Shown here piece by piece: positions 1-23,560 of a DNA stretch of 64,000 bases. Both the position numbers and the translations under genes were made by a program. This DNA comes from a virus. The notes beneath the pieces are model-generated. The model saw only the letters and a program-made list of their open reading frames with translations, did no database searches and was not told the origin of the DNA. Every line of letters begins with the position of its first letter. The first letter of the stretch is position 1. The DNA lies in IMG/VR virus record IMGVR_UViG_3300045988_132703; one strand, given 5' to 3'.

Positions 1-312
1 TGTACAATATATTATTTGCATAATAGTTTTGTTAATTTAGCGCTGAATCGTTTTGGCAAAGAGATTGGTAAAAATCTTGATATGCCATTGAGTGCGACAA
101 TAGATAATGCGACATTTGCACTTGATGATAATAAAAGAATTGTTGTTTAGACAATTAAAGGTTTATCTCGTGGCTCAATGGCGAGTTGCAGGTCAACTTA
201 TGCTATTGTTGAAGGCGCACTTATAACACCAGAAACAGTGGATATTTACAATCAGTTGGCCCAAACAACGGATGAAATATTCCTTTGGGAAGAAAGAGAG
301 TTGCAGGAGTAA
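1..312 (+). CDS. hypothetical protein (3' part; 5' end outside window)
   Basis: Frame 1 open from window edge to TAA 310-312 when TAG 148-150 is read through. Confidence 0.5.
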
Positions 313-320
313 TAATGTAA

Positions 321-1391
321 ATGGTAATTTTGTTCTCTGTGATAGGAGCACTCGTTGGCGCAATTATAGTTTATATTATAATGCGCGGGCGCCAAGAGGA
401 AGTTAAACAAATCAATAGAGCGCAATTAGAAGCGTTTGATAAAGAAGTTCAAGAGAAAAAGGTAGTTACTTAGCGTTTAATAGATTCTTATAATGAATCG
501 CTTGAGCGTGCGAAACAAGAAAATAATAAGGCATTAGAACACGCGAGACGATATAATCAAGAACAATTAAAGCAAGTTCAATCAGATTATTATAATAAAG
601 TTCAAGATTATACAGATAAAGCAGAAGAACAAAAGACTTTTCTAAACAGGGATATTGCTGAGCTTCAAGCTAAGATTGTTGCTCTTGAAAAAGACTATGA
701 CCATAAGATTGCTGATTTTGATAGGCAATGGTAGTCTTTGATGAAAGAACGCCGTGAAGCGATGGATAAATTAGAAGAAGAGAATTTGGACGATTATCTT
801 GATTAGCAAATGTCTCTTGAATCTCAATATCAAAAGGACAAAGTAAAACTTTAGTCTGAGATTAATAATTTGTCTGCTTTGCGCGCGAGTCTTATTGAAG
901 CGCAAATTCGTGAACAAAAGCTCAAAGATGAACAAGACTTTTATCGTATTCATCTCTCTGTTGATGCTCAAGAGGATATTGATAAATTACTTCGTTTCGC
1001 TAAAGAGTGTCACAGTCAACAACCTTTGCGCAAATTGATTTGGAGTGAGTATTTCTTAAAACCTTTTGGTGAAATGGCTGGACGCATCCTTGGCAAAGAT
1101 AAAATTTCTGGTATTTACAAAATTACTAATATTAAAGATGGCAAGATATATATTGGACAGAGTACTGATGTAAAAACTCGTTGGTCCAATCATATCAAAG
1201 CCGCGCTCAAAATAGATTCAATAGCTCATTCAAGAGTCCACGATGCGATGGGTGAAGAAGGTATTTGGAACTTTACTTTTGAGTTATTGGAGCAATGCCC
1301 AAAGGAGAAGCTAAATGAGCGAGAGAAATATTATATAGAATTTTATCAATCAAATATCTATGGATATAATAAGACTATTGGTGGAGCTTAA
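321..1391 (+). CDS. membrane-anchored coiled-coil protein with C-terminal GIY-YIG/T5orf172-like domain
   Basis: ATG 321; hydrophobic N-terminus VILFSVIGALVGAIIVYII; Q/E/K-rich middle; GIYKITN..GKIYIGQS..R.SNH near C-terminus; 4 in-frame TAG (471, 732, 804, 852); track ORF 870-1391 is its 3' part. Confidence 0.7.
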
Positions 1392-1717
1392 TGGATATTC
1401 TTAATAAAATGTATTTTCAAAGTGGGACTGCGAGATTAAGAAATGACGGACTTATTGATTTGTCTCTTAATTATATATACAATAATGGAAAAGAAGATAA
1501 GTCTTTTAGTTTAAAAGGAGTTGTCGATAATCCAGTTGTTACAATCGAGAATGCCTATCGCGGCCCGAAAGAAAGAACCACAGAAATGTTGACTGATAAC
1601 CGTAATTATAAACTAAACGGAATTGTTTCCTTTGAATTTATAGCAGATGAAGGTACAGGTAATCTTTATATGCTTGAAATAGCAGATATTCAAAAAATAG
1701 AGGGAATTGATAAATGA
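1391..1717 (+). CDS. hypothetical protein
   Basis: Track ORF; ATG overlaps upstream TAA (TAATG). Confidence 0.6.
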   Translation: MDILNKMYFQSGTARLRNDGLIDLSLNYIYNNGKEDKSFSLKGVVDNPVVTIENAYRGPKERTTEMLTDNRNYKLNGIVSFEFIADEGTGNLYMLEIADIQKIEGIDK

Positions 1718-2043
1718 CTTATTCTGATATATTGGAAGAAATGGGACGTCATGGCATGGACGAGTTTTATATCGAGCGTTACGAAGTTGAAACTATTGCA
1801 CCCAATAAATATCTTATTCATATTATTTTCGATGGCAAAAAGAAAAAGATGTATTTGACCGCGCGGGCAACTGACGTAATTGAATCTCATACTTTTGAAA
1901 CAACTTCTGCTTTTGGTGGAATTAATGCTCAAAAAGTAATTGAGTATAAAGGGCCGATTGTTAAACTTGGGCTAAATACTTTTATTGATTTTAATAAAGA
2001 TACCCCCGTCACGTTTTATTTCGTTGACAAGGAGAAAAACTAA
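1714..2043 (+). CDS. hypothetical protein
   Basis: Track ORF; ATGA overlap with upstream gene. Confidence 0.6.
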   Translation: MTYSDILEEMGRHGMDEFYIERYEVETIAPNKYLIHIIFDGKKKKMYLTARATDVIESHTFETTSAFGGINAQKVIEYKGPIVKLGLNTFIDFNKDTPVTFYFVDKEKN

Positions 2044-2876
2044 TGCAATTTGATAATACGAGAACTTTTAATTGGGAAGGTGCTTTTCACGGTATGAGAG
2101 CGCCACTTGAGTCTTGGACAAAATCAGACAGTACTTTTGGTTATTGTTATGAAGATAATGAAGAAGATTTTGAGATTCTAAATACTTGGCGCGAATATGA
2201 TAAGTATGATGAAATGACTGAAGCCGAAAGGATGAAATATGATGAAGAAAAGTTGGCTTGGCTGGATAATAATGGTTGTATCTACTATGACGTTGGCTCT
2301 CGCGTTATGGAATATGCTTTTCTTGGACCGGCGGACTTGGATCTCGCTCAGCGATTGATTAAAGCTGGGCCAGAGCATAGGAAATTTTTGCGCCAAATTT
2401 TCGTTTCAGCTTATATTAGTTTGCCTTTGTCTATATGGAAATAGCTTGATACTTATAAAATTGGTACTGTAACCAATTCTACTTCTACTATGCATAAAAT
2501 TCAGTCTAAACCGCTCACAAGAGAAAGTTTCGAGATTGAGCAAATTCCTTATGAGGAACAGGAAGAAATGGAACAGCGCGATGGTATTTATTGTGCGGGT
2601 GAATTGGATGATTTGTTCAATGAAACAATCCAGACTTGTGAAGATTTGCGTAGAGCATTTAATCAGACAAAAGACAAGCGTTATTGGCGTAAGTTAATTG
2701 AATTGCTTCCTGAGTCTTATCTTCAAGCGCGTGAATATACCTTAAACTATGAGGTTCTTCGTTCTATTGTCCATCAACGCAAAGGGCATAAATTAGGCGA
2801 ATGGCAGAAATTTATTCATTGGGTTCATACTTTACCTTATGCAGAGGAGTTAATTTTCTATGATGGAGACAAGTAA
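2043..2876 (+). CDS. hypothetical protein with weak ThyX-like pattern (tentative)
   Basis: Track ORFs 2043-2444 and 2490-2876 share a frame and join through TAG 2442-2444; EHRKFLRQIFVS..LPLSIWKQLDTYK..NSTSTMH loosely resembles the ThyX core but has no RHR motif. Confidence 0.55.
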
Positions 2877-2877
2877 T

Positions 2878-3219
2878 ATGAATTATGAGGAACGTTCTTT
2901 GAACACTTCTAAAGCTATTGGGCAATGTGTTAATTAGATTTCATTGCTTGATCCTATTCAAGAGGATTCTGACAATGAACTTCACGAAGTTCCTAATGAT
3001 ATGATAGATCATCCTAACCATTATCAAGCTGGCGGTCTTGAGTGTATTGATGTTATGGAGCAACTTTATGGACGCGAAGCCGTTGAATCTTGGATTAAAT
3101 TAACTATTTTCAAGTATATCTGGCGCGCAGATAAAAAGGATGGCGCACAAGATGTTGATAAGATTCGTTGGTATTCCGAAAAATTGGTTAAAATGTTGAA
3201 AGAGGATGGTAAATATTGA
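2878..3219 (+). CDS. DUF3310-like phage protein
   Basis: ATG 2878; in-frame TAG 2935-2937; HPNHYQAGGLECIDVME...FKYIWRADKK pattern typical of DUF3310. Confidence 0.7.
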
Positions 3220-3971: not shown

Positions 3972-4032
3972 AATTTTATATGGAGCAATAAAGAATTAGT
4001 CTTCTCTTGAAGGCGTACTTGATGCCGGGGCG

Positions 4033-4545: not shown

Positions 4546-4550
4546 GATAA

Positions 4551-6392
4551 ATGCCGGGTAAAACACTAAAAACTAGAATACAAAACAAAGTTGATTCATT
4601 AGCTAACTTACAAGCTAACAATCCCTATATCCTTGCGGGCGAGCTTGTAACTGCTTACACTACCGTTGGAGTTAAGCAAGAGGATGGTAACGTAGTTCAA
4701 AAGAGAGTCGCTTATATCTATGTAGGTCCGGGCAACTTTAACGATTTGTATCCTATTGTAGGACCTTCTGCCGATGTTAAGGCTTGGGCTAAGGTTGATA
4801 ATTTCGTTGATGTCGTCATTGAAAAATTAACTAAGACTGACGAGAAAGGCGACATTGCCGAGAATGATACAGTTAATACAATGATTAACCGTATCAATAA
4901 TAATTTCGCGCAAATTAAAACTGATATGCCATCTAAGACTTCCGATTTAACCAATGATGGCGAAGGTGCTGAAATCCCTATTAAGGATTTTATTACTGGA
5001 TATGAATCTTATTAGTTTGTAAGTCGGGATTCAGTTAAAAATTATATTGACACTTTTGGTTTGCAAGATCTAACGGAAATCAAAAAGAAACTTGCTGAAC
5101 TCGAAAAGAAAGTCGATGATAATTTAAAGGCGATTGATGAACGCTTTAAGTTATATTATACTAAGACTGAAATTAACGATTTACTTGCCGGTTATCTTAA
5201 AGGCGTTCAGATTGGCGATAAAGACGGTGGAGTTGTACTTAGTCCTGCTTCTACTGTGGTTACTTCTGAACAGATTTGGACTTAGATTAAAGATACTTCT
5301 CAAACAGATATTGAGAAGATTGCAGATGCAGCTGCTTCTACTGCTCTTAGCCAAGCCAAGACTTATACTGATACTAAGTTAAGTGAGTTTATCACTATTT
5401 CTTATAAAGGCCCTTATGATTCTTATGCAGCTTTACTTGCGGATAATGTTGATGGTGGCAAAGCTGGCATTATTTATCTTGTAAATCATAATCATAATGA
5501 TAATGACAGTTATGATTCAACAGATAGCGATATATTTGATGAGTACATTTGGGTTACACGTCAAGATGGCGGACAGCCTGGCTTTGAAAAAGTTGGTAAC
5601 ACAGATGTCAAGTTAAGCAACTATCTTCAGGCTGCGCTTAAAGAAGATAAAACTGGCGTTCTTGAAGGCGACGAAGGCTCTGTCTCTAAGATTGAGGTTG
5701 TTGAAGACCCAGTTGGTAGCGGCAACAAGTTCTTTAAAGTAACTTATAAGACTTTAATCAAGAGCGAGACATTTGATGCAGGTAAAGTTGCTGTTGGCTT
5801 TGGCAATGGAGCATTAAAGTCATCTGCTTTAGTTAATATTCCTTTAGCCGGTATCGCAGCAGGTAGTACAGAATCTGATATTAACGAAACTACTACACTT
5901 GGTGGAGCAATCAGAAACTTAGAAACTAAGATTGATGATGCAAAAGCCGACGGTGTTAAAGAAGTTGATATTGCTACTGATGGTGGTGTTGATGTTAGTG
6001 GTGGCCCGATTACCAATAAGGGCACATTAAAGGTTAGTCACTCTTTAAGAGCAACTGCAACTTCTGCTGTTAGTGATACTGTTGGTTCTGCGGATGAGCG
6101 CACTTATGTTAAAGAAATTGCGCTCGATAAATATGGTCATATTGTTAGTGTTACTACTGGTAAAGAAACTAATGTTGATAGTTATGCTACTGGTGGTTCA
6201 TTTGCCGCGGACAATACAAAAATTGAATTAACCGTTACTGGTACTGGTCCTAATTTTAAGACATTCAAAGCAGGACTTAATAAATTGCCTGCTATGTTAT
6301 TATCTCAAACTGATGCCGAAGATGATTTCTTAGTACTTTATTGCGGCACTAGTAACATTTTAGCTTCAACAGAGCAAGTCAATTATACCTAA
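4551..6392 (+). CDS. tail fibre protein
   Basis: Track ORFs 4551-5015 and 5061-5285 plus 1.1 kb of Met-free open frame are one frame; TAG at 5013 and 5283; TAA 6390-6392; coiled-coil segment then G/T/S-rich repeats. Confidence 0.7.
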
Positions 6393-6407: not shown

Positions 6408-6809
6408 ATGCTCAAGGCTAGAATACAACTTAAAAAAGACACCAGCAAGGCTTGGCGCATCAATAATCCTGTTCTATTGGATGGCGAAGCTGGTTATGAA
6501 TCAGATACAAATCTAATGAAAGTTGGCGATGGAATCCATCGTTGGCTTGAATTAGACTATACAAACTCTGGCGCGACTGCAATAGCAAGCACAGCTAACT
6601 ATGCTATTAACGCAGGTGCACTAGGCGGAACTTCTGCGGCTGATTGGGCTAAGAAGTTCGATAATTATGTTTTAAATACTCGAATTGAAGCCGTTATGTC
6701 AACTGCTTCAGCCGCGGACAAAATACCAACTTCAATAGCAGTTACTAATTGGGTTAAGTCGCAAAATTTCGCGGGTGCTGGTGATATTACTACTTGGGAG
6801 GACTTTTAA
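6408..6809 (+). CDS. tail-fibre N-terminal-domain-like protein
   Basis: KKDTSKAW..NPVLLDGEAGYESDTNLMKVGDG pattern common at N-termini of phage fibre proteins; SD AAGGTGGTGA. Confidence 0.6.
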   Translation: MLKARIQLKKDTSKAWRINNPVLLDGEAGYESDTNLMKVGDGIHRWLELDYTNSGATAIASTANYAINAGALGGTSAADWAKKFDNYVLNTRIEAVMSTASAADKIPTSIAVTNWVKSQNFAGAGDITTWEDF

Positions 6810-9800
6810 TGGCTAATAAATTATTAAAACCAAAGAGAGGTAGAGTAGAGAACCTGCCAAAATTGGCTGTTGAGGATGGTTCTCTTATTTTTGCTTATGA
6901 TACTAAGTCTCCAACTAGTACTGTTTTAGTTGATGTTGGAGAAACTAGATATGAGTTATCTGCTGCAACGGCGAAGAAAGCAGATGATTCTAACGCTCTT
7001 GGCGGCAGTAGTCTTCAAAATATTGTTGATAAGATTGACAATGCGACAGGTGATGGAACTGCTTTTACTGGTTTAGACACTACTACTAATAATAAAGTAA
7101 AGCTAACAAGAGCTAATGGAACCACAGTCGAAAAAACGGTTAATAATGTCTCCAATGCTTCGACTGCTGATTACGCAAAAGTGAGTAATAAAATTGGAAC
7201 AGGAACTGTTGGTTCATCAACTAAGCCAGTTTATATTAATGCTGGTACTCCTACTGCGATTAGTTCTATTCCATCTACTTTTGTTACAGCGCAGCAAATA
7301 AATGGTATTAATCTTGATACTTTGCGCACGCCAGGCAGATATTTTGCAAACGGGAGTAATACCAATACTGGTAAGCCAACTGGTGTTGATGCTTTTGCGC
7401 TGGAGATTCTTTAGAGTGCGGCCGGATGGTATACTCAAATTTGCTATGCTTCTGATGATTAGGAGAAGCAATTTGTTCGTTATTATAATTCCGGTACTTC
7501 TTCTTGGAGCGATTGGGTTGAACAAAATCGTTTAAACACTAAGACTCAAAGTGGTTATGCTCCCGCGCCAAATGCAGCAAATAAAGTTTATCGAACTGAC
7601 GCAAGTGGTAATCCTGGTTGGGGCACATTGAACGATGGTTCTATTGGTAAACTTGCGTCTACTGTTACTCTTGGTTACGGTAATGGTGCAATGATTGACT
7701 AGAATAGCGATACTTATCGTCAGCGTATCAATATTTTTGATAATGCAACAGCTAATGATGCAGTATTTAGTTTCTAGCAATCAACAGACGCCGGAAAAAC
7801 CTATAAAGATTTATTTGTTATTAATGATAATGGTACTGTAGTCGCATCAACATTCCAAGGTGCGCTTAAAGGAACAGCAGATTATTCGAAGAACTCTGGT
7901 GCTCTTGGTGGCAGTAGTCTTTAGAACATTGTTGATAAAATTAATAACTCTACTGGTGATGGAACTGCTTTTACTGGTTTAGATACAACTACAAACAATA
8001 AGGTTAAATTAACTAGAGCCAATGGCGGCACAGTTGAAAAGACAATTAATAATGTATCTAATGCTTCAACTGCGGATTATGCAAAAGATTCAGATAAATT
8101 AGATGGATACCATGAAACAGATTTTCTTCGTTATCGTGGCGCGACGGGTACATCTGCGGACTCTTTATGGAATCAAATTGGAATTAAAGAATTTGATAAT
8201 TGTTATCCAGATGGATTAAACGGTATCTATCCTTACGGAGCAGTAGTTTCTTTACCAACTCCAAATGTTCGTTTTGATATTTGGGTAAATCGTCAGTCGT
8301 CTAATGGCGTAACAAATGGCTTACAATATCGTTCTGGTTGGACTACTGATAAAAGGCCTTGGAGAATGTTATTAGATAGTGTTAATTTTACACAATATGC
8401 AGCAAATAAAAACGCTTACAATAGTGCATCAGTTTCCAATGCAACTATTACTCTTGGTCGTTCTGATGGTTCAACTGGTACAACTTTAACTGTCAACAAT
8501 GTAGCTCATGCAACCAACGCTGATCTAGCTAAAAATTCTAACGCTCTTGGCGGTTCTTCACTCAAGAATATTACTGATAGAATTGATTCCTCTATTGCTG
8601 CTAATGACGCCATGCACTACATGGGCACTCTTGGTGCAACAGCTCAAAAACCAACCATTACAGCTTTACCTACAACTGCACGAATTGGCGATGCTTATAA
8701 GGTTATAACTGCCGGAACTTATTCTTCAATAGCAGCTGAAGTAGGAGATTTATTTATTTACTCTGGCTCTTGGACATTAATTCCATCCGGTGATGATGGC
8801 AATGTTTATGTTGGAGATTCAAAGAGTTCAAAATTTGCTGCAAAGAGCAATAATATTGTTGTTGCAGTTGGTGATTAGAAAGTAGCGAGTGCAGCAAATG
8901 TAAGTGCCAATGCAGGTACAATTAGCGCATTATAGAGTACTATGACGTAGTTGAAAGCTAATCAAGGTACTGTTACAACTTTAAATGGTAGTAAAGCTAC
9001 TTTTAGTACAGTTAATGGTTATTTAAATGGTAATGCAGATAGTGCAACTAGATTAAAATCACAAGGAAAATTAACCACTGCTTTATCTGGCACAATGATG
9101 GATACCCAGAAAGGACTTTGGATGACCGAAGCATATGCAACTACTAATGCAAATCCTTGTACTTATGGAAATGTGCTTCATCTATCAGGCGTAAATGCTG
9201 GTGGGCAAAATGAAATTTTCTTCGGTTGGCAGGGCGGAGGTTCTGTAATGCCGGGAGTTTTTGTACGTAGCCATAGAAATTTTGTAGGCTCAGCAGATGA
9301 CACTTGGTCAGCTTGGACCAAATTAATTAGTGGTGCAGACGCTCTTCAAACTTCAGCTTCTGCTATTGCTTCTACTAATAATTACTTTACTGCTGGGGCG
9401 ACTACTGCTTATGTTGCAGCAAAAACCGCAAGTGCAGTTGGTAATTATTTGCCCTTATCTGGTGGAACAATGAATGGAACTGCAATAATTAGTTGGGCAG
9501 ATTCTGGTACTTGGGGAAATACCACAACTTTTCCAGTTAAACGAGGAGGTTTATCTTGGACTGGTTAGTCAGATGGCGTTGAATTATTTGCGGAAGAAAC
9601 TGGCGGTGACAATCTCGAGCTAATTGCAAAATTTACTGATGATAATTCAAACGGTTTTACAATTCGTAATGCTAGTAATAATCAAGTAATTCGTTTGGCT
9701 GCTTCTGGCGCGATTACAGGTGGAAGTTTAGATGTCTCTGGAGGAATTTCGGGCAGTAACTTATCCCTTTCCGGCAGAGGCGTTCAATTAAATAGAAAAA

Positions 9801-10279
9801 GCGGGGCGGCCAATGGGCGAATTTCATGGTGGGATTCAGGTTATCATACTTGGGTTAGTTATATGTCAGTTCCAATTGATGGCGCAGCGCCAACGGGTGG
9901 AAAACCATCTGTTTTTGGAGATGTAATATCTTGGGCATAGAGAAGTTTAATTTAGAATAGTCCTGGTTTCGGATGGATTTGGGAGTCTGCGACAGAAGGA
10001 ACAATGACTTCTACTTTAGCCGTTACTCCTTTAATGTCTCTTGGCTCTGCTACCGGTAATTTAAAGGTTAAGGGTACTGTTACTGCTACTACCGTAAATG
10101 CTTATTTAAATGGAACTGCTAAAAATGCCGATACAGTAGATGGTTTCCACGCAGTCGATTCCAATAGTTTGACAGCATCGGCAACTAGTGCTAAAATAGT
10201 ATTAGCAAAGAATGTAGTATCCTATATTAGTTCATTAGGCTTGGCTACAACATCTCAACTCGAATGGATTGAATTTTAA
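6809..10279 (+). CDS. giant tail fibre protein (1156 codons)
   Basis: GGAGG then ATG 6809; five track ORFs (6794-7414, 8366-8878, 8951-9568, 9695-9940, 10004-10279) all in frame 2, joined by 11 in-frame TAG (7412, 7460, 7700, 7775, 7922, 8876, 8933, 8948, 9566, 9938, 9953); no TAA/TGA in frame. Confidence 0.75.
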
Positions 10280-10293
10280 AAGGAGGGAGTCAC

Positions 10294-12432: not shown

Positions 12433-13235
12433 TGGCTTTACAATTAATGGGTGCAGCGCCTTCAGTAAAAGAAATCGGAAGCTATTTGGACTTCCACGTA
12501 GATGCGAATAAAGGTGCAAAAGATTATGATGTAAGACTTCAAGCCAAAGATAGTGAACTTGATATTCTTGGTTCAAAAGGTGATTCAAGCACTGTTCTCA
12601 AAGTGGGCAATAATTTCATGGCTTGGACAGATTCCGAAGGTGGCAATATCCGTATTTATTCTCCATCTCAAGCCTATTTTTATGAGATGGATGCATATAA
12701 TCATAGTTTAAGAGTTGGTGGTAAACAAGTAAGCAATGGTACTTTTAAAAGTATTACGCTCCTTGACACTAATGGTTATTCGACCTTTAATCGTGCCTAT
12801 AATGCCGTCTATAACGATTATGCTGAATTTTTCCCACGTGGAGAGGATACAGAGCCTGGCGACATCATCGCTCTTGATGATTCTGTTGACCAAGAACAAT
12901 ACATCAAGGCTACTATTAATTCTTGTCGAGTTGTTGGAATTCATTCTAATGAATACGCTTTTTTGATTGGCGGTGAAAATCCACCAGAAGGGCAAGACTT
13001 TTATTCCTACAACATTTCTAAGTACATTCCGATTGGTTTAGCAGGACGTTGTAGAGTTAAAGTTCTTGGCCCTATTTATAAAGGTTAGGATATAATTCCT
13101 ACTTCTATCCCTGGTATTGGGCGTGCGTTCAATAGAGAAAAAGACAATCCGTCACTTCTTTATTTATCGGTTGGTTTTGCTGTTGAAAACTCAACAGACG
13201 AATCAATTAAACTAGTCCGCGCGAAATTAAAGTGA
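12432..13235 (+). CDS. fibre-associated protein, peptidase-G2/intramolecular-chaperone-like C-terminus (tentative)
   Basis: TAATG overlap; TAG 13086 read through to TGA 13233; GDIIALDD...VVGIHS..YAFLIGG...IPIGLAGRCRVKVLGPI..G pattern. Confidence 0.55.
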
Positions 13236-13246
13236 GGTAAAAATCA

Positions 13247-14185
13247 ATGGCTATTCAAATGAAACGCCAAGGCGGAGGGGCGTCAAATAATGCAGCTGCG
13301 ACTATTCCTACTGCTCTTGCCTATGGTGAGATTGGTATTGATAGTGCAGGGAATATTTATTGCGGCAATGGTAAAGCTCAAGTCACCTCACAAGTTAAAA
13401 ATGCTGCTAACGTTCTTTTCTTGTACAAAGGGACTTATAAGAAAGACGGATGGGTTGAGAATAGTGCAAATAGTACTTGGTCTTAGACGGTCGCAATTAC
13501 CGCTCAAGATGGTGGTCCTGCAATTAAAGCAGATTTTACATTATCTGCGCCTATGGCCGCGCAAACGGATAATCGCACGACAAATGAATAGCGCCAAAAT
13601 GCTCTTGGTATAATTTCAGTAGGAAAATGTACTCCGAATGATAGTGGTCAAATTACTTGCTTAGTATTTGAAAAACCATCAATAGACCTTGATGTTTATT
13701 GGTATGCGCGATTGTCTGGCGGTTATGATTCAATGGTAGATGCGCAAGGCGTTGGTACTATCGTTGATTCGGCTGTAAACAAAGCAATAGATGATTTAAA
13801 ATCAAACATTACTTCTATTGTCAATGATGCAATTAACGATAACAATATTTATACTAAAATTAATAGTGTCTGTGCAGTTTATCGCGCGAAGTATTTAGCT
13901 TCAGGTTGGACAGCGGTATCTTCTAATGGTTATAGTTATTACCAAGAAGTAACTACTTCTAAAGTGTCTGACGGCAATGCCAATTTAAATGCGTCAAGTA
14001 TATTCTTGACTCCTGGTTTCTTTTTGCCAAGTGGCGCAGCATCAACTGATGCAGCTTACGCGCGAGCAATGGGCATTATTAATGACGGTTATTCAACAAG
14101 CGGTACAAATAAAATTATGACCTATACTACAACTAAACCAACTAGTGACATATGGGTCTATTGGGTGGTTAGAGAAGCAGTATGA
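13247..14185 (+). CDS. hypothetical virion protein
   Basis: Track ORFs 13247-13486 and 13712-14185 share a frame; TAG 13484 and 13589. Confidence 0.6.
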
Positions 14186-14754
14186 TTTATGACGAATTAA
14201 CTGGCGAAGTAATTGAGAATCCAGACCTTACAAAAGGCAAAGTTTATACTGAAGAAAAAGTTATTGGGCATAAAGAAGCTCAACGAGTTCTTCTTGAAGG
14301 TAGTATAACTAATTTTGACCCAGAGGGCTGTTGGATGGAGATACCTGCCGAGGATATAACTGAAACTATTGAGAAATATCACAAGTATACTATCGACGAA
14401 TTGATTGAATAGTAGTAGACTGCGATTAAACCAAATGATACTTCAATTTCTCAAGAAAAAAAACTTGAGCTATTGCTTAATGCTATACCTACTGCCACAT
14501 ATCCAACTGAATCACCCAAGGCAGGCTATAAATGGTCTCCAACGTATAATAGCGAAGCGGGATTTGGTTGGGAAATGGTAATTGATCCTGACGCTTTTGG
14601 CACCCAAGAAAGACCTTTATATTGGAAAGAGGGTATGGAAGTTAAAGCTGGATATTATTATAAAGATGAAAGTGGGCGACTGATGTTTGCTGTTGAGAAT
14701 GGAGTACCTGATTATTTTGGTTAGTACACTTTTATGGAAGAAATATTTAGTTAA
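14182..14754 (+). CDS. hypothetical virion protein
   Basis: Track ORFs 14182-14412 and 14473-14724 share a frame; three consecutive TAG 14410-14418 and TAG 14722; TAA 14752. Confidence 0.55.
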
Positions 14755-14767: not shown

Positions 14768-15216
14768 ATGGGTACTTTATCTAGGTGGGGCTATAATGCC
14801 CTTACCTCGTTGGAGATATTTATATAAAGATTCGAAGTGAAAATTCTTCGAATCTTTGGTAGGGGACAACTTGGGAGAAACTTGGGAGCGGACGGGCGTT
14901 AATGAGTGCAGATAGTAGCCATGGAGTTGGAACTACGGTTGATAGTGGATTGCCGGATATTCAAGGTACTCATAAGATTGGCTGGGGAGATAAAAGTGGC
15001 GGCGGTGTCATTATATCTTCTAATTCAACTACTGGTGCTTTTTATTCCGCGCGTGATGGCAGTGCTATTTTTAGTGCGGGAACTTATGAATCGACTAGTG
15101 ACAACCATAGAAATTAGGTTGGTTTTAAAGCTAGTAATTATAATTCTATCTATAACAAAAGCTCTATAGTTCAACCTCCTGCTTTCTTCTGTTATTTTTG
15201 GAAACGATTAAGTTAA
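14768..15216 (+). CDS. tail-collar-domain paralog 1 (frame-disrupted)
   Basis: ATG 14768 frame stops at 14825; the paralog-like sequence PYLVGDIYI..WQGTTWEKLGSGR continues in the -1 frame from 14797 (CCC run 14799-14801); TAG 14860 and 15115; TAA 15214. Confidence 0.45.
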
Positions 15217-15229
15217 GGAGTATAATATT

Positions 15230-15721
15230 ATGGCATCTTTAGCACGGGGAGGGCTAGATTTAGATAAAATCTGGCCTATTGGTTCAGTCTATATAAGTGT
15301 CAATTCGACTAACCCTAGTAGTTTATTCGGCGGGAAATGGGAGCAGCTAAGTGGAAGATTTTTAATAGGAGTTGGAACTGGAACAGCTAACACTACCAAC
15401 TTTTGGGGTGATGATAGCTGGGATCATCTAATTGGAACAGTAGAAGAAAAAGGCGGATAGGCCTGGCATACATTAACTGAAGCAGAGTTACCAGTTATTG
15501 ATGGTTCTTTTCGTACTCCAGTTGTAGCAAACCACAATACTTATGGCGTTAGAGGTCATGCTTATGGTTCGAATTGGTCTGATAATAGAACTACTAATGA
15601 ATATTCAAGTGGTAGTGGAGCTGTTATGAATTGGGGCTATGGCTATAAGTTTGGCGGAGGTCAAGCCCATAATAATATGCCTCCCTATCTTGCCGTTTAT
15701 ATGTGGAAAAGAGTGTCATAA
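15230..15721 (+). CDS. tail-collar domain protein
   Basis: PIGSVYISV..LFGGKWEQLSGRFLIG...HTLTEAELP...GGGQAHNNMPPYLAVYMWKR; TAG 15458. Confidence 0.75.
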
Positions 15722-15742
15722 TATGTTCTAAGGAGCATTATT

Positions 15743-16187
15743 ATGTCAAATGTAGGAAAGATGAGTCAAGTGCTTAATGCTTATCCAGTTGGCTCGATTT
15801 ATATGAGTGTGAATAGTACGAATCCTGGTGAGTTATTTGGTGGTACTTGGGAACAGATTCAAGGAAGATTTTTACTTGGATAGGGTTCGGGTTATTCTGC
15901 GGGCGCGACTAGCAGAGAAGTGAATCATGTTTTGAGCATAAATGAAATGTCAGAGTGTAATCACTGGGTTCATATCCTTGCTAAAGGTTATAGCAGATGG
16001 GGCAGTGATGGCTATTCAAATGGCGAATATTCAACAAACTAGCTGGAGTAACCCGCCAGCTTATGTCGGTTCTTATACAAATACCACTCATATTTTAATG
16101 GGACAAACTGGGAAAGATGGTGGTAGTCAATCTCATAATAATATGCCGCCTTATCTTGTAGTATATATCTGGAAACGAATAGCTTAA
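15743..16187 (+). CDS. tail-collar-domain paralog 3 (frame-disrupted)
   Basis: N-terminal part (YPVGSIYMSV..FGGTWEQIQGRFLLG) in frame 2 ends at TAA 16049; C-terminal motif GGSQSHNNMPPYLVVYIWKR is in the +1 frame (track ORF 15942-16187). Confidence 0.45.
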
Positions 16188-16195: not shown

Positions 16196-16224
16196 TTGAC
16201 TTTTCTTTCTACTGATGATATAAT
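16196..16224 (+). promoter_or_regulatory. sigma70-type promoter, early-cassette-like, inside the late module
   Basis: TTGACT-17 nt-TATAAT with TGa extension. Confidence 0.55.
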
Positions 16225-16256
16225 AAAATAGTAATCAAGTATTAAGGATGATTTTT

Positions 16257-16611
16257 ATGGGGTAAATTCCTAATTTTAGTGCCCCCCCCCCCAGATAGTA
16301 GTTTAACGGTATCTGGTAAGGCAGCTGATGCCAAAGTGGTGGGCGATAAAATTAACATAATTAATTAGATACTTTCTTCTTTGCAAACAACAAAAATTAC
16401 GTCTGGAGATTGGACTTGTATTACTCTTGATTGTGGAATAAAAATGTGTTTTTTCAAAGGACAATATGGAAATACTGATATAACAAGATCTGAGGGTTCT
16501 CTTTATTGGGCGTCTTTTTCAAAGGCTCTTCCAGCTGGATTTTTTCTGAATACTCTTGTGTTTAGTGTCAGTGTGAAGTAGAATCTGGTTGGGCTTTATA
16601 GTTAGTTTTAA
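16257..16611 (+). CDS. small fibre-like protein containing a poly-C tract (start frame uncertain)
   Basis: Frame 1 open 16252-16611 (TAG 16366, 16579, 16603); LTVSGKAADAKVVGDKI motif; ATG 16257 is one nt out of frame (GGGG run); C11 at 16282-16292 encodes PPPP. Confidence 0.4.
16282..16292 (+). repeat. homopolymeric C11 tract
   Basis: Eleven consecutive C read directly in the sequence. Confidence 0.9.
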
Positions 16612-16755
16612 ATCCTAATAGTTCAACTAGCACATTAAATGGTTGGTTTTATACAAGCTAACCTAAAACAGTTAATCCTTATATTCATATTTTTTGTATA
16701 GGAATTTAATTTTATTAAAATTCTTAAATTTATTTCATATAAAATTCTTAATGTT

Positions 16756-16788: not shown

Positions 16789-16818
16789 AGAACAGAATTT
16801 TTATAGGAGGAAATCGCA

Positions 16819-19176
16819 ATGGACATACTCCTTTTCGGGACTCTTCGAAAATATATTGACGACACTCTTCAAGGTGCTGGTGCGCTTAAAGGTGAAAAAG
16901 GCGACCGCGGAGAAAAAGGTGTTCAAGGTCCAAAAGGTGATAAAGGTGATAAGGGAGACACCGGCCCGCAAGGACTTCGTGGTATTCAGGGCTTAACTGG
17001 CGCTACTGGTGCGAAAGGCGAGCGTGGTGCGCAAGGTGTCCAAGGATTGACTGGACCTCAAGGTATTCCTGGCGTACAAGGTATCCAAGGTCCAAAGGGC
17101 GAGAAAGGTGACAAAGGCGAAACCGGTCCCATTGGCAAACGCGGTGTTCCTGGAGTCAATTATAATATTAAATATTTTTTGTCTACTCTTAACGAATTAA
17201 ATGCCATCACTCCTGCTACTGGTTATGACGAAGCTATTTTTGCTTACGTAGCAGAAAACAAATCAATCTACTATTCTTATGAAAGCTCTCCTTGGACTTT
17301 TTTCTCTGATGCGTCTAATCTTTAGTTTGCGCGCGGAGAGCAAGGTGAGCAGGGTCCAAAAGGTGAGAAAGGCGACAAGGGTGACCGAGGCATTCAAGGT
17401 ATCCAAGGACCTCAAGGTATCCAAGGTCCTCAAGGTCTTCAGGGCATTCAAGGTCCAAAGGGTGATAAAGGTGACAAAGGCGACAAAGGCGACTCGCTTA
17501 CTTGGAATGAAGTTCCAGAAGCTGCGCGTAAAGAACTTAAAGGTGAAAAAGGCGATAAAGGCGATACTGGCGATTCTGGTGTTTATTATGGTCCAACTGA
17601 GCCAGAAATTAATCAAGAAAAACTTGTTTGGATTGATTCATCAGTAGAAGAACCGGCTACTACAATTGACATTGCTAACATTCCTGGACTTCAAAAGGAA
17701 CTTGATTCTAAAGTTCAACTCCCCTCTAAAATTGAAAATGGTACTCAGCTATTTCCCGTTGCAACTTCAAAAGGTACGTCATGGGTCGCTCTTGAAGAAA
17801 CTGTCAACGGAATTGTTAGTGAATGTGTAAATATCATTGTGCGTGGCACAGATAATGCAACTCTTAAAGGCACTGAAATTTATCTTCATGACGTAACAGC
17901 TAACACTATATCTACTTTTGAATGGAATGGGACCAGTTTGACTGTTTATGTTTTAAATGGACATAAATATTTTATCAGTGGCGCCGAAGTTGAAGGATAT
18001 GAGCCTGTTGCGGATAGTTTACAATATATTGCGCGAGCTGCATAGACTCGTACAATCATTTTATCTTATCCTTGCTCAGAAGAAGCAGAGTATGGTATTC
18101 GATTCTTAATTGAATCATCAGATCCGTCATGCGAGCGCGTTGTAATTAAGAATAATATTACAACTTATGGTGAAGATACTGGTTTAGTGGCTGCTATTGG
18201 TAGTAAACTCGTTATGCCCAAGAATAGTTTTGATGATATTTATCCTTGGTCAGATATTCGCATTGTAACCGACTCTGATAATGCTGCCGAGGCCGCGCAA
18301 ATAATGGTTAAAATTCCAAAGTATTATGTCAAGGTTACTGTTGATGATACCTATGAAACTTGGATGATTAGTCGCTACAAAAAAGCAGGTTATCGTGTCG
18401 CAAAAATGTTTGCTCGTCCTGACGGAACCGAAGCAGACTATTATGAATATGCTCGTTACGAGACTAGTGATACCAATCGTTCTCAAACTGGCGTTACTCC
18501 TCAAAATTCAACCACTATTGAAGCATTTAGAACTGCCGCTCTTGAGTTAGGTGATAATTGGCATCTAGCTGGACTTGCAGACCGTACTGATGGACTTCAG
18601 ATGCTAATGACTATTGAATTTGCTACTCGCAATATCCAGTCAATAGCAGAAGGTTTGGTTAATTCTAGGACTGTTTCTGATTGCGGTTTGACTGATGGTT
18701 TAACCATTACCGAAGATTCAAAGGGAATTAAGCCTTATTCTGGTATTGTTAAAAATGCTTTTTCTTATCGTGGAATTGAAAATCCTTACGGTAATTTACT
18801 TGAATACGCTGATGGTATTATTTTGAACAATTCTCGTGTGTACTATTGCGACGATTGGACTCGTTGGAGTAATTCAATTAATTCAAGTTACGTTCAAGCT
18901 GTTGGCACGATCCCAACTTTAAGCGGATTTATTACTAAATTGAATTATAATGAAGCTAATCCTTGGATGCGTTTGCCTAGCGAAGTAATTACTGCTGGCG
19001 ATAGCGATAGTAATTATAGCGACTATTATAATGCTCCAACCGCAGATTATACCTTGCCAGTTTATGGTGGCGGTTATTCTACCAATTTGCGCGCGGGCTT
19101 ATTCCACTGGAATTGTACTCGTACTTTTAGTGAAACAAATAGAGATATTGGTTCTCGTTTGGCTCGTAGTTTTTAA
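16819..19176 (+). CDS. collagen-like tail fibre protein
   Basis: Track ORFs 16819-17325, 17839-18045 and 18187-19176 share a frame; TAG 17323 and 18043; two Gly-X-Y tracts ([19 protein letters not shown]...). Confidence 0.75.
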
Positions 19177-19188
19177 GAGGTGATTGAA

Positions 19189-19512
19189 ATGAGAATATCA
19201 AAAGCAGCAAGCGAAATTCGTCCTCAAAATACTATTGAGCAATTATCAGCTAATCGTTTTTCTTGTCGCATTTGCGCGGACGTTGTTGAAACTGTTGATG
19301 GTTTTAATTTCACTAGTTATCGAGATTCATTCAGCGCATCTTCTTATCCAGAATTACTTGCGAATATCATTCATACTCGTTATACTTATGATGACGAAAA
19401 TAATTTTATTAACGATTATATTGCGGAAGGCATGACTAAAAAATATAAAGACTACCGTGATTTTGTTGCTTGGGCTAAATCCCAAGCAAAATCTTATTTT
19501 AAGGAGGACTAA
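19189..19512 (+). CDS. hypothetical protein
   Basis: Track ORF; ATG 19189 lies 7 nt after AAGAGG. Confidence 0.55.
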   Translation: MRISKAASEIRPQNTIEQLSANRFSCRICADVVETVDGFNFTSYRDSFSASSYPELLANIIHTRYTYDDENNFINDYIAEGMTKKYKDYRDFVAWAKSQAKSYFKED

Positions 19513-19515
19513 CCT

Positions 19516-20175
19516 ATGCCTATAATGCAGTTATATGATAAAAATACAAGCACTTGGCAAGAAGTTCCTGCTTTAAAAGGTAGTGCCGCGAAAGTAGAAA
19601 TTGGCGCAGTAAAAACCGTACCAGCTACAGAACAAGCAAAAGTAACCAATGTTGGCACAAATACTAATGCAATTTTTGATTTCCAACTTCCTCGCGGCAT
19701 GGATGGTATTACTCCCATTCGTGGTACTGATTACTGGACAACCGCGGACCAATAGCAAATCATTAAGGACGTATCTGATAAAATGAATTATCAATTTACA
19801 GATTTGATGAATGCTATTCAAAATAAACCAATCACTTACATTTTTGATGATAAGACTTCTCTTGATGGGGCACTTAATTTAGCTGATAATACTGTCACTT
19901 ATAACGGAAAAGAGTGTAAGTTAAATCCAGGTGATATGTTCCTTTTGGTTTCGATTAATGAACCAGACTATTGGTTTGGAGAGGATTCTAATGGCGAGAA
20001 ACTCCATGAGCTTGACGCGCGTAAAATAGAATTAACTGAATATGTTAAATCAAGTCAATTTCAAGTGATGGATATTGATGCTTATAATGCTATTGCTACA
20101 AAAGATCCAAATACTTTTTATTTCATCATTGAAAAATCAGATTCGACTTCAAATGACGGGGAGGCAACAATCTAA
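19516..20175 (+). CDS. hypothetical virion protein
   Basis: Track ORFs 19516-19755 and 19783-20175 share a frame, joined by TAG 19753; shares ITPIRGTDYWT motif with 21262-21540. Confidence 0.6.
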
Positions 20176-21008
20176 TGCCTATCTTCATTGACAATAAACG
20201 AGTTTAGCTTATCTACAAAGGTGAAACTCCTATTGAGGAAATTCATACTCAAAATGCGACTATTTGGACTCCAAAAGCAGATTTTTCTACTGCTTCGTGG
20301 GCTGAAATTAAAAAGTGGATTGAAAAGGGTACTTGGAAAGAATAGAATTGGAGCGAAGGAGATACTCATACTATTCATATGAAGGATGGCCATATTCTCA
20401 CCGCTCGAATTCTTGCAATATATGATGGCCGCGAGGAAAAAGCAACTTACAAAGGTCAGATTGATAGAGATGAGAATAATGCAAAACCGCACATGGTTCT
20501 TGAACTAGTCACTTGCTTGCCGGATTCTTATCCTATTAATTCAGAGCCAGAAGTAGAAAACACTCATCAATCTTGGGGTACTTCAAACCTTTACAAGTTA
20601 ATGTCTCCTGGCGGCGAAATATATGATAATCTGCCAAATGAACTCCAATCAATGATGATTCCTGTAATGAAAAAATCTGGCATTAGTGGCAAGATCCAAA
20701 ATTCAAGTCCTGAAATCACCAAATCCTATCTTTTCCCGCTCTCAATTCGAGAGTATGTCGCAAAAGACAATATTACAAGCGAAATTAATAATAGCGAGGG
20801 TTCTCAATATCAATACTATATTGATCATCCTAGTCACGTTGTTAAAAAAGAATATGCTGGCGATAAAAATATCGTCTATTACACTCGTTCCGCGATGCAA
20901 GCTGAAAATGAACTTTATGAATACTTTTGGGCTATTGGCGGTGCGAATAATTATGCAACTTATCCATCCTATATTAGTTTGGGAACAAGTTTTGCATTTT
21001 GTATTTAA
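20175..21008 (+). CDS. hypothetical virion protein
   Basis: TAATG overlap; TAG 20205 and 20343 read through into track ORF 20379-21008. Confidence 0.6.
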
Positions 21009-21018
21009 GGAGGTTCTT

Positions 21019-21195: not shown

Positions 21196-21202
21196 TGATT
21201 AG

Positions 21203-21250
21203 GCCGCAATCAAAAAAATAGGTTCTTTCTCTTGATTGCGGCTTTATGTT
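21203..21250 (+). terminator. hairpin terminator (long loop)
   Basis: GCCGCAATCAA...TTGATTGCGGC then TTTATGTTT. Confidence 0.45.
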
Positions 21251-21261
21251 TGGTGATATGA

Positions 21262-21540
21262 ATGAAGTTATCTGGAAATATTACTAGTGAAAGTTCTATA
21301 AGCGGTTCTATTATGTCTGGAGATATTTCTGGGGCGCTTTCTAATCCTTTAGCTATTGGACCATCAGCTTACGAAGTTGCAGTTGCTAATGGATTCGATG
21401 GAACTGAACAAGAATGGCTTAAAAGTCTAAAAGGATATACTCCAATAAGAGGGGTAGATTATTGGACAAAAGCCGACATAGAAAAAATAAAAATGGAACT
21501 TGAAGATTATATTAACGCTTTATTAAAAGACAAGGAGTGA
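21262..21540 (+). CDS. tail-fibre-associated protein
   Basis: Track ORF; SAYEVAVANGFDGTEQEWLKSLKG motif, paralogous to 4033-4545. Confidence 0.6.
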   Translation: MKLSGNITSESSISGSIMSGDISGALSNPLAIGPSAYEVAVANGFDGTEQEWLKSLKGYTPIRGVDYWTKADIEKIKMELEDYINALLKDKE

Positions 21541-21544
21541 AGAT

Positions 21545-23560
21545 ATGGATTTAATAAATTTAGCCCTTGTGTAGAAAGCTGTTCGAGATGCTCACGTTGA
21601 TCACATCGGTCCTCAGGGTCCAAAAGGTGATAAAGGAGATAAGGGAGATTCGCTTACATGGGATGACTTAACCGAAGAACAAAAAGCATCACTAAAGGGC
21701 GAGAAAGGCGATAAAGGAGATAAAGGTGATCAAGGTCCTCAAGGAATCCAAGGAATCCAAGGAATCCAAGGAATCCAAGGAGAGAAAGGCGATACTGGCC
21801 CCCAAGGAGAGAAAGGTATTAATGGCACTAATGGTCTTTCTGCTTTTGAAGTATGGCTTGAAACCAATCCCGGAAAAACCGAAGCTGATTTCTTTTTAGC
21901 AATAAAAGGAGATAAAGGCGATAAAGGCGATAAGGGAGATACTGGTGAACAAGGAATCCAAGGAGAAATTGGACCTCAAGGTATCCAAGGAATCCAAGGA
22001 GAGAAAGGTGAGAAAGGTGAAACTGGCGAACAAGGACCTAAAGGCGAATAGGGACCACAAGGCATTCAAGGCATATAGGGTATCCAAGGCGAGAAAGGTG
22101 AAACTGGTGATACTGGACCACAAGGAGAAATTGGACCTCAAGGACCTCAAGGAGTCCAAGGAGAACGTGGAGAGCCTTTCTCAATAAAGAAAATCTACTA
22201 TTCTATTGGTGAGATGAATTCGGATTTTAGTAATACTGATGTTAATATTGGAGAATTTGTACTTATCAATACAGGAAATGTAGAAGACGAGGATAACGCT
22301 AAGTTATTTGTTAAAACCGAGACAGAATATTCTTTTATAACTGATTTATCTGGCACTGCTGGTATTCAAGGTCCTCAAGGAATCCAAGGTATTCAAGGTC
22401 CTCAAGGAATCCAAGGTATCCAAGGAATCCAAAGAGAGAAAGGAGATACCGGTCCGCGGGGAGAAACTGGGCCCGCCGGTTCTGACGGTAAAACCCCGGA
22501 ATACGGCGTTGACTACGGCACGCCGGAGCAGATTGCCGGGATTGCCCAGCAGGCGTCGGAGATTTTGAAACCGGATGTTAATCAGATAAAGGATGATATT
22601 GCTGGGCTGAAAGACTCCAAACAGGACAAGCTTATTGCCGGTACTGGAATCACGATTGCAGAGGATGGGAAGACCATTTCAGCGTCTGGAGGCGAAATCC
22701 TGATTGCGCACAAAGTGTGGGCAGACTGCTACATTGAATTAACCCCAGTGGAAATCGACTACGAAAACTATACAATTACTGTAGCCGATGCATCTGGTGT
22801 GCCGCTGGAAATATCCGGAAGTTGTGTTGATTATATATCTATTACAGACTGGTCCGGGAAAAATGCAACACTTGATATTGCTCCAGTCGAATTGTTTCCA
22901 GTTCAGCTTTTTGCTATCCATGTCGGTGATAACAGGTTACAGTTTTACAATTCGCAGAAAGCGCTAATCCGATTTACAGCCAATGACAACGTTGATATCA
23001 ATCGGTTCAAGATTTATGTTAAGAAGCAAAATGCAACTAGATTATCAGTAGCAAATCTTTATCAAAATCACGCATATCGCATTGTGATGGTTAAACGCGG
23101 ATTTAATCATTTTGTAAGTGGATTCAGTATCAATAATAGTAATAATCGTGATTGGGGCTATTCGTATGGCAATAAGGGTGGAGTTAAATCGTTTGGACTT
23201 GGTTCCAACAACGCAGGCAATTCGTTTTCCTCTACTCAGGTAAATCTCTACGAAACATTTTCTTTTCGTAGTATACCTTATGGTGACACTGTTACGTGTT
23301 CGTTTTTTCCATCCATCATCGATGTCGAAATAGTACCGTCTAAAAACGGAAGTGTATTCGAGCATTGGCTTCATTGGAGAATGTCGTATGTGCAGAGAGG
23401 CAGTAGCACCGTTAAAGAAATAGAATACAGATATACTACAGGAACGCTATTTATGCCATATGAAATTGGATCGATTGTGTCACAATCTGGCAATGCAGGC
23501 AATTATTTTGGGAATGGTACGGAAATGTTAGTGTTTGATAAGGGGGAATGGGTTGAATGA
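21545..23560 (+). CDS. collagen-like tail fibre, chimeric (AT-rich recoded N-part, GC-richer C-terminal domain)
   Basis: ATG 21545 in the same frame as track ORF 22214-23560; TAG 21572, 22049, 22076; long GIQ/GEK Gly-X-Y tracts; composition shifts at about 22440. Confidence 0.75.

Follow-up and report, generated by a model that had tools for sequence, protein, structure and literature searches.

Glutamine at TAG codons in the baseplate and tail-fibre cluster and in homing-endonuclease genes of a large uncultivated phage

The IMG/VR virus record IMGVR_UViG_3300045988_132703 contains, at the start of the 64,000-nucleotide stretch analysed here (the window), a block of plus-strand genes at positions 1-23,560 that appears heavily interrupted by TAG codons when read under the standard genetic code (code 11). 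The window has a guanine-plus-cytosine (GC) content of 38%, its plus strand carries nearly all genes from position 1 to approximately 54 kilobases (kb), and the ribosome-binding sites are strong and of the GGAGG type. With TAG taken as a sense codon the block resolves into 23 tightly packed plus-strand open reading frames (ORFs) between 321 and 23,560, along with a partial ORF at 1-312. The approximately 7,100 codons of these 23 ORFs and the partial one include 47 in-frame TAGs and not a single TAA or TGA, an extra small ORF at approximately 16,279-16,632 contributes three more in-frame TAGs, and none of the block genes shows a frameshift. The 23 complete ORFs terminate in TAA (15) or TGA (8), and all 63 tabulated plus-strand genes likewise end in TAA or TGA and never in TAG, the only two doubtful cases being 38802-39137 and a weak minus-strand ORF at 59449-59886. 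Off-frame stops within the block genes number 561 TAA, 450 TGA and 228 TAG, and the probability that all 47 in-frame interruptions would be TAG if they were random stops is approximately 3e-35.

Greedy ORF calling on 1-23,560 under four stop readings yielded 43 ORFs with a coding density of 0.759 and a mean length of 139 amino acids under code 11, and 26 ORFs with a density of 0.959 and a mean of 290 amino acids when TAG was read as sense. Reading TGA as sense (code 4) gave 45 ORFs at a density of 0.764 and a mean of 134 amino acids, and was rejected as bringing no gain in density or ORF length; reading TAA as sense gave 44 ORFs at 0.873 and 158 amino acids, and was rejected because the gain comes mostly from spurious minus-strand ORFs. 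At 54-64 kb a gain under the TGA-sense reading is only apparent, as the minus-strand genes of that segment are short and intact under the standard code. The earlier note on this DNA, drawn from its letters alone, had estimated about 50 in-frame TAGs in about 27 genes, which comes close to the 47-50 TAGs and 23-25 genes found here. Its statements that no TAA or TGA lies in frame and that the genes end in these two codons hold throughout, its 1156-codon fibre gene in frame 2 with 11 TAGs corresponds exactly to ORF 6809-10279, and the TAATG and ATGA junctions that it described are found at 1391, 1714, 2043, 6809, 12432 and 20175.

Matches to PHROGs and Pfam families identify tail-fibre, tail, baseplate (Gp10 C-terminal domain) and collagen-like tail proteins across 6.4-23.6 kb. 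The same searches gave no match in the block to capsid, portal, terminase, sheath or tube proteins, and the three products identified in the first 3.2 kb are non-structural ones, namely a GIY-YIG-like protein, a member of phrog_6721 and a protein matching a PHROG 'nucleotide kinase'. Given the lack of capsid, portal, terminase, sheath and tube matches, the block is better termed a baseplate and tail-fibre (host-recognition) cluster than the virion module of the earlier note, a term that claims more than these genes bear out. No lysis genes were identified within the window.

For comparison we used related IMG/VR contigs recovered by protein-seeded scans (given L numbers below), which measure 111-179 kb, with shorter fragments in addition, and come mostly from dataset 3300045988; the codon-by-codon comparison took in seven of them, with approximately 91% nucleotide identity to the window over the block. 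The block opens with the 3' part of a gene truncated at the start of the window (1-312), whose one TAG at 148 is kept in all seven relatives and whose complete version is a 107-residue ORF in L007 and L013. The protein encoded at 321-1391 combines a hydrophobic N-terminus, a charged repetitive middle and a C-terminal GIY-YIG domain, which PHROG homing-endonuclease families match at residues 257-355; its four TAGs are conserved in the relatives with one replacement by CAG. The phrog_6721 member (2043-2876), belonging to a phage family of unknown function, has a single TAG at codon 134 that is crossed by the profile match at residues 4-272, and TAG-free homologues with 41-49% identity align with it over the full length, with E or Q in the TAG column. 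A further distant homologue with 41% identity, at 10001-10642 of the unrelated contig L021 (IMGVR_UViG_3300001520_000022), itself contains six in-frame TAGs, one of which shares the TAG column of the window while the others fall in columns where the window has Glu, Arg or His. The coding density of that contig rises from 0.71 to 0.86 when TAG is read as sense, suggesting that it is probably an independently recoded phage. The small protein matching PHROG 'nucleotide kinase' families (2860-3219) has one TAG, and a 613-residue protein of unknown function (4551-6392) has two, of which the one at 5283 is CAG in two relatives.

The tail-fibre genes begin with a small, TAG-free tail-fibre-like gene (6408-6809) matching PHROG tail-fibre and tail-spike families, followed by the gene for the 1156-residue tail-fibre protein (6809-10279), at whose 11 TAGs the relatives have TAG, CAG or CAA, and in which a phrog_26580 match at residues 870-971 crosses the TAG at codon 920. 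The 712-residue fibre-like protein encoded next (10294-12432; five TAGs) has a repeat in common with it. The three genes at 12432-13235, 13247-14185 and 14152-14754 contain one, two and five TAGs respectively, at which relatives show TAG, CAA or CAG; in L036 the homologue of this segment (12432-14754) is intact, no stop codon other than TAG falling in frame. Next come three small genes of the baseplate or tail, at 14902-15216, 15230-15721 and 15743-16051 (one, one and two TAGs), in the second of which a Pfam Gp10_C match at residues 11-162 crosses the TAG at codon 77; PHROG tail families also match in this set (14902-16051). A small fibre-like ORF at 16279-16632 (three TAGs), with a tract of 11 C at 16282-16292 near its 5' end, precedes the gene for a collagen-like tail protein (16816-19176), which has two TAGs, and two more upstream if the start is placed at 16639. 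In this protein a phrog_819 match at residues 78-316 (numbered from the start at 16639) crosses the TAG at codon 229, phrog_5302 also matches, and the TAGs are kept in all seven relatives. Four genes at 19189-19512, 19516-20175, 20175-21008 and 21262-21540 carry zero, one, two and zero TAGs, the relatives showing TAG, CAG or CAA at these sites, and the block closes with the gene for a 671-residue collagen-like tail protein (21545-23560) with three TAGs, two of them within G-x-y triplets (GE-TAG and GI-TAG). Homologues do not stop where the TAGs lie: both the profile matches and the distant TAG-free homologues run across these positions.

The identity of the amino acid inserted at TAG emerges from comparison of the window with its seven relatives. 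At 239 aligned codons opposite the TAGs of the window, the relatives have TAG 176 times, CAA 26 times, CAG 24 times and another codon 13 times, such that 50 of the 63 non-TAG codons specify glutamine (Gln). Conversely, where the relatives have in-frame TAGs, the window shows CAA at 16 sites, CAG at 12 and other codons at four, and the presence of Gln codons at 28 of these 32 sites indicates that TAG encodes glutamine. Many of the exchanges involve CAA, which is two substitutions away from TAG, and this points to synonymous exchange within the Gln codon family rather than to mere mutational proximity. Comparisons within the window also place TAG opposite Gln: in the internal repeat of the fibre gene (GGSSLQNIVDKI versus GGSSL(TAG)NIVDKI), in the collagen repeats (GIQGI(TAG)GIQ) and between two of the GIY-YIG endonucleases (KITNQVNGKCYIGQS versus KITN(TAG)INGKCYIGQS).

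Substitutions relative to these contigs, when counted after the first TAG of each gene, are dominated by third codon positions (5208, 1393 and 809 at positions 3, 1 and 2 respectively), with a synonymous to nonsynonymous ratio of 4680:1774. The same pattern is seen before the first TAG, with 1890, 624 and 313 substitutions at these positions and a ratio of 1649:763. Four relatives seemed to have a TAA in frame at window position 12,723, but this arose from misalignment of a segment rich in indels, and the orthologue is intact. The above observations show translation of TAG as Gln both within the baseplate and tail-fibre cluster (321-23,560) and beyond it, in four genes for homing endonucleases.

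Hence, the recoding that the earlier note had located in 1-23,560 holds there and is not confined to it. The first of the four plus-strand genes outside the block (28044-28961) encodes a 305-residue GIY-YIG homing endonuclease with five TAGs and lies downstream of an early-type promoter at 27637. The second, an HNH homing endonuclease (35607-36344; five TAGs), lies between tRNA-Glu(ttc) and tRNA-Ile(gat), which are 775 nucleotides apart in the window versus three in L001, and the third, another GIY-YIG homing endonuclease (37451-38296; eight TAGs), lies between tRNA-Arg(tct) and tRNA-Arg(cct), with a spacing of 970 nucleotides in the window versus 50 in L001. In both cases the endonuclease gene is the insertion that accounts for the difference. 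The fourth gene (48126-48563) encodes a 145-residue protein with six TAGs downstream of a promoter at 47894; it has no family match and is grouped with the homing endonucleases by sequence only. All four are thus situated downstream of consensus promoters or within transfer RNA (tRNA) arrays, and they constitute the peak of TAG density in the window, with 24.6 TAGs per 1000 codons (31 CAA, 5 CAG and 24 TAG) versus 6.2 in the recoded block at 321-23,560 (192 CAA, 42 CAG and 44 TAG).

The remaining plus-strand genes form a sharply different class. A region compatible with the standard code extends over 24100-53400 on the plus strand and comprises 36 TAG-free genes with TAA or TGA stops, 15 consensus promoters and two tRNA arrays. 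These 36 genes, at 24-54 kb, have 61 CAA, 82 CAG and no TAG in 5042 codons, where 31 TAGs would be expected at the rate of the block (P approximately 3e-14). Their codon usage is also distinct: the fraction CAA/(CAA+CAG) is 0.43 in them versus 0.82 in the block, and TTA/(TTA+TTG) is 0.31 versus 0.68, such that the TAG-free genes favour the G-ending codons CAG and TTG, and the TAG-containing ones CAA and TTA. This split is compatible with adaptation to host versus phage tRNA pools. The promoter consensus, TTGACT-N14-TGnTATAAT, has 27 matches in the window with at most one mismatch, versus 0.11 expected, and is of a sigma-A-like form with an extended -10 element, TTGACT(TTT)-N-TGnTATAAT. Fifteen matches lie on the plus strand at 24.1-47.9 kb (for instance 24143-24171, 26094-26122 and 44542-44570), and 11 at 54.8-61.9 kb, nine of them on the minus strand (for instance 54895-54923), amid short standard-code genes; the sole match in the recoded block is at 16196-16224 on the plus strand. 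The same consensus occurs at eight sites in L026. These promoters presumably mark early transcription units on the plus strand at 24-48 kb and a divergent set on the minus strand at 54.8-61.9 kb; the 36 TAG-free genes, which lie behind such promoters, are presumably expressed early. Three independent features, namely TAG content, host-type consensus promoters and codon usage, thus give the same division of the genes into two classes.

A candidate for the decoding tRNA is found in the relatives. An identical tRNA with a CTA anticodon (TGACCTTTCAGATAATGGTTAGTCTAGGTGGCTCTAACCCACCATGTCTCGGTTCGATTCCAGAGAAGGTCAGCCA) is present in all five relatives examined upstream, approximately 15 kb before the equivalent of window position 1. 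It sits in a tRNA array and has U1-A72, G2-C71 and G73, a 5-base-pair anticodon stem and a 5-nucleotide variable loop; U1-A72, G2-C71 and G73 are identity elements for the glutaminyl-tRNA synthetase (GlnRS) of Escherichia coli. A separate gene for tRNA-Gln(UUG) lies near it, and a promoter-like site is situated 42 nucleotides upstream of it (L026, 3011-3039). Given these observations and the distribution of TAG described above, it is very probable that the genome is that of a large (approximately 176-180 kb) uncultivated phage in some of whose genes TAG is used as Gln (code 15).

Several observations weigh against this conclusion or against parts of the scheme built upon it. The 13 non-Gln codons among the 239 opposite TAG include TAT, AAA or AAG, TGG, CGG and CCA. 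In an ORF at 46685-47074, within an otherwise TAG-free region, codon 13 is TAG in the window and three relatives and TGG in three others, and this may reflect either a true start at the downstream ATG at approximately 46754 or a rare exchange between TAG and Trp. Neither ARAGORN in its default and relaxed modes nor Rfam detected a tRNA with a CTA anticodon in the 64-kb window, which also contains no release-factor or aminoacyl-tRNA synthetase gene; the suppressor of this particular genome is thus one that we infer from the relatives approximately 91% identical to it over the block. The suppressor tRNA of these relatives is itself atypical, with a weak or bulged T-stem and an Rfam score of 31.5 bits against a gathering score of 29, and the host-type promoter beside it could make TAG readable almost from the start of infection. 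Moreover, single TAGs occur in the relatives in genes for NrdD, a Dam methylase, radical-SAM proteins and a glycosyltransferase, and the presence of TAG in such metabolic genes indicates that a restriction to late or structural genes would be too simple a description. Finally, the temporal gate, the charging enzyme and the timing of expression in the scheme presented below are conjectural.

Of the alternative explanations, the one that survives best accepts TAG as Gln and regards its distribution as neutral, the product of CAG-to-TAG drift in AT-rich or recently acquired genes. It is favoured by the lower third-position GC of the recoded genes (0.27 and 0.21 versus 0.33) and their depletion in CAG, by the free swapping of TAG, CAG and CAA among close relatives, by the single TAGs in metabolic genes and by the host-type promoter of the suppressor, which may thus be present early. 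However, a total lack of TAG in 36 genes is very far from random and coincides with an independent feature, the consensus promoters, and a peak of TAG density in selfish endonuclease genes inside early units fits gating better than drift. We consider drift unlikely as the whole explanation, though it keeps a substantial minority share of the probability.

Two further alternatives appear far less probable. Under the first, TAG is sense and specifies an amino acid other than Gln, such as pyrrolysine, Tyr, Trp, Lys or Glu. ARAGORN indeed labels the CTA tRNA 'tRNA-Pyl', TAT, AAA or AAG, or TGG stands opposite TAG at a small number of sites, and the distant phrog_6721 homologues mostly have Glu at the TAG column. 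The label, however, derives from the anticodon alone, and the anticodon stem, variable loop and U1-A72 of the suppressor form an architecture unlike that of tRNA-Pyl, U1-A72 being a feature of tRNA-Gln. Genes of the size of pylS or pylBCD were not seen in the window or the flanks examined, and the preponderance of Gln codons in both directions of the comparison makes this reading highly improbable. Under the second, which we judge just as improbable, the host itself reads TAG as sense or has a strong native suppressor, and the phage mirrors the code of its host. The window is consistent with this in having neither a suppressor tRNA nor a release factor. Against it stand the 36 genes without TAG, with their host-type promoters and distinct codon usage, as well as the CUA tRNA encoded by the relatives themselves; furthermore, the hosts predicted by Borges et al. 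for recoded phage clades other than code-25 ones use the standard code (10.1101/2021.08.26.457843). The weakest explanation, a decaying, misassembled or error-ridden block with accumulated nonsense mutations, could appeal to the fragmentation of its genes under the standard code and to the ORF at 16,279-16,632, which looks switched off by a TAA for CAA at codon 3 and one extra C, but is practically refuted by the 47:0:0 bias of the interruptions towards TAG (P approximately 3e-35), the absence of frameshifts, the conservation of the TAGs across seven independently assembled contigs, the mostly synonymous, third-position-dominated substitutions after TAG and the artefactual nature of the relatives' apparent TAA.

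Use of TAG as Gln by the phage itself suggests the following scheme. The host would use the standard code, and its RNA polymerase, starting from the strong TTGACT-N14-TGnTATAAT promoters, would transcribe the genes that lack TAG along with the tRNA arrays, that of the suppressor among them. A host enzyme that attaches Gln, or else some phage factor, would then charge the suppressor. Once abundant, it would outcompete release factor 1, and messages containing TAG, namely those for receptor-binding and baseplate proteins and the selfish endonucleases, would be fully translated. TAG could thus serve as a translational gate that delays or conditions the production of these proteins. The location of the endonuclease genes inside early transcription units, where TAG would block them, suggests that such a gate acts on translation independently of transcription, and the presence of 11 TAGs in one gene implies that decoding must be efficient. 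This differs from classical amber suppression, with which it has in common a tRNA with a CUA anticodon reading UAG, in that suppression is now indispensable at dozens of codons in each genome, with as many as 11 in a single gene, instead of being a leaky read-through of occasional nonsense mutations.

The small fibre-like ORF in the middle of the block has a peculiarity of its own. Its 11-C tract at 16282-16292 is the sole run of at least eight C or G in the window and lies at the 5' end of the ORF (region 16243-16632; motif SGKAADAK), just downstream of the only promoter of the block. Tract length determines if the ATG and the rest of the ORF share a frame; in the window copy they do not, and codon 3 of the frame that starts at this upstream ATG is TAA in place of CAA. 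One related contig, L037, contains three tandem cassettes (5817, 6271 and 6693) with 10, 12 and 10 C respectively, and a poly-C tract is also seen at 16293 of L008. Similar poly-G tracts occur in Campylobacter phages, and the sequence makes the poly-C tract a candidate for a hypermutable, phase-variable element of a receptor-binding gene.

The pairing of TAG gating with this candidate tract in the receptor-binding cluster, along with the location in early-transcribed tRNA arrays of endonuclease genes whose TAG density is about four times that of the structural genes, raises the further idea that the recoded codon serves mainly to contain selfish or conditionally useful genes and is not a generic late-gene switch. 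On this view the single, atypical suppressor tRNA would also need to be charged with Gln in a Gram-positive host in which GlnRS may be missing, and this would imply a novel route of charging or a phage factor. We regard this as a speculative proposal that is unlikely to be correct as formulated.

The tRNA complement beyond the suppressor is itself unusual. ARAGORN finds 14 tRNA genes in the window by default and 16 when relaxed, and Rfam 13; an extra Rfam match at 35509-35578 is tRNA-Glu(ttc). The window arrays lie at 26205-29979 and 35508-38409, and more than 30 tRNAs are found across the lineage. The relatives have, after Arg(tct), a tRNA-like gene with an 8-nucleotide anticodon loop, ATTCCTAA, containing CCTA, for which ARAGORN reports 2- or 4-base 'anticodons' (L001 2248-2324, L002 6694-6770, L003 6697-6773, L005 5629-5705 and L006 6276-6352). 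It was considered as a suppressor and rejected, since its orthologue in the window (38334-38409), which adjoins the inserted GIY-YIG endonuclease gene, is a canonical tRNA-Arg(CCT). The Cys, Asp, Glu-CTC and Thr tRNAs, which normally have short variable loops, possess long hairpin-like variable arms and measure 84-92 nucleotides (26205-26288, 29531-29614, 36569-36660 and 36843-36928 in the window). The extra arm varies among close relatives (L001-L006), with lengths of 86 or 76 nucleotides for the Thr and 92 or 78 for the Glu tRNA, and the tRNA-Glu(CTC) of the window has C instead of U at position 33. Sub-threshold Rfam matches at 35262-35334 and 37027-37139 in the tRNA-array region, namely to a hepatitis delta virus (HDV)-like ribozyme of the Faecalibacterium prausnitzii type (25 bits versus a gathering score of 44) and a YrlA-like Y RNA (24.8 versus 69), the latter between two tRNAs, are probably chance or tRNA-like sequence. 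A protein encoded upstream in the relatives was dropped as a possible Ro60/TROVE partner of the YrlA-like match, as Pfam assigns it to DUF2828 and DUF7788.

Elsewhere in the window, only two ORFs of at least 300 amino acids lie outside the fibre block, namely the 305-residue GIY-YIG gene at 28044-28961 and a 472-residue ORF at 40650-42068 with no Pfam match. In the relatives, the segment just before the equivalent of the window start encodes a UvrD-like helicase, a Dam-like methylase, NrdD and a further tRNA array. Directly downstream of the suppressor are genes for two radical-SAM proteins (one checked against Pfam) and a 215-residue Cys-rich protein with repeated CxxxC motifs, all containing TAG, and further upstream are a TagF-like CDP-glycerol glycerophosphotransferase and a PurA/PurZ-like adenylosuccinate synthetase homologue (L026 3277-8334; L041 66-2333 and 7249-8379). 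The last two hint at possible functions in cell-wall or DNA-base modification.

The lineage has no close counterpart among deposited phages: megablast of the block against GenBank phages returned no matches, and tblastn against a phage collection gave only weak ones, to Bacillus jumbo phages. No exact counterpart of the 472-residue protein was found either. The host is probably a Gram-positive (Bacillota-type) gut bacterium. Strong GGAGG ribosome-binding sites are typical of non-Bacteroidota hosts. The crAss-like records in GenBank gave no nucleotide or protein match, and the lineage is not a member of the Crassvirales; it resembles the crAss-like code-15 phages in reading TAG as Gln and in recoding late-gene modules, and departs from them in its GGAGG sites, the TagF-like enzyme of the relatives and the distant protein similarity to Bacillus jumbo phages. 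The code-15 gut-phage pattern recognized by the earlier note is therefore supported as regards TAG-to-Gln, and its comparison to crAss-like or Lak phages is, given the strong GGAGG sites and the lack of detectable similarity to deposited phages, one of analogy and not of membership. In crAss-like phages code 15 has been validated by metaproteomics (Peters et al., PMC9523058).

The closest parallels are the phages described by Borges et al., who reported that several clades of gut phages, among them some that infect Firmicutes, recode TAG to Gln, with recoded structural genes and standard-code-compatible early genes, predicted Firmicutes and Bacteroidetes hosts for all but the code-25 clades, found suppressor tRNAs in 35-40% of such phages and RF2 (release factor 2) or synthetases rarely, and noted in an Agate phage a recoded homing endonuclease in an early gene (10.1101/2021.08.26.457843). 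The present lineage agrees with them in the concentration of TAG in tail-structural genes, the standard-code subset, the suppressor tRNA(CUA), the low GC, the avoidance of TAG as a terminator and, as in Agate, a recoded homing endonuclease in the early region. It differs in that the free-standing homing endonucleases, and not the structural genes, show the densest TAG, in that neither RF2 nor a synthetase was seen in the approximately 110 kb formed by the window and the flanks of the relatives (L013, L007, L026 and L041), and in that the window yielded no lysis genes. The relatives' contigs, the largest of which measure 176-179 kb, overlap the size range of the Agate clade (154 +/- 27 kb; 10.1101/2021.08.26.457843), and on contig size and Gram-positive-type signals alone the lineage is compatible with that clade. 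According to Babkin et al. (PMC10607447), phAss-1 and the proposed Phassvirus group are human-gut phages of approximately 136 kb with in-frame TAG in many ORFs and with suppressor tRNAs, the phAss-1 group having three of these as against the one seen here. The phAss-1 relatives BK046881_ctckW2 and BK025033_ct6IQ4, as named there, are not among our matches in the phage collection, in which their inclusion is unconfirmed.

TAG-to-Gln recoding in this lineage is thus real, though already described as a phenomenon, and the lineage adds a clean example from a large phage. As a practical consequence, this contig and its IMG/VR relatives need to be annotated with code 15, since code 11 breaks their tail-fibre and endonuclease genes into fragments; only with code 15 calling do the full-length receptor-binding proteins, which are relevant for host-range prediction, emerge. 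With respect to the biology of such phages, the two classes of genes described here, and the position of TAG-rich endonuclease genes inside early transcription units, support a view already published, in which recoding gates translation separately from transcription, and leave that view unchanged.

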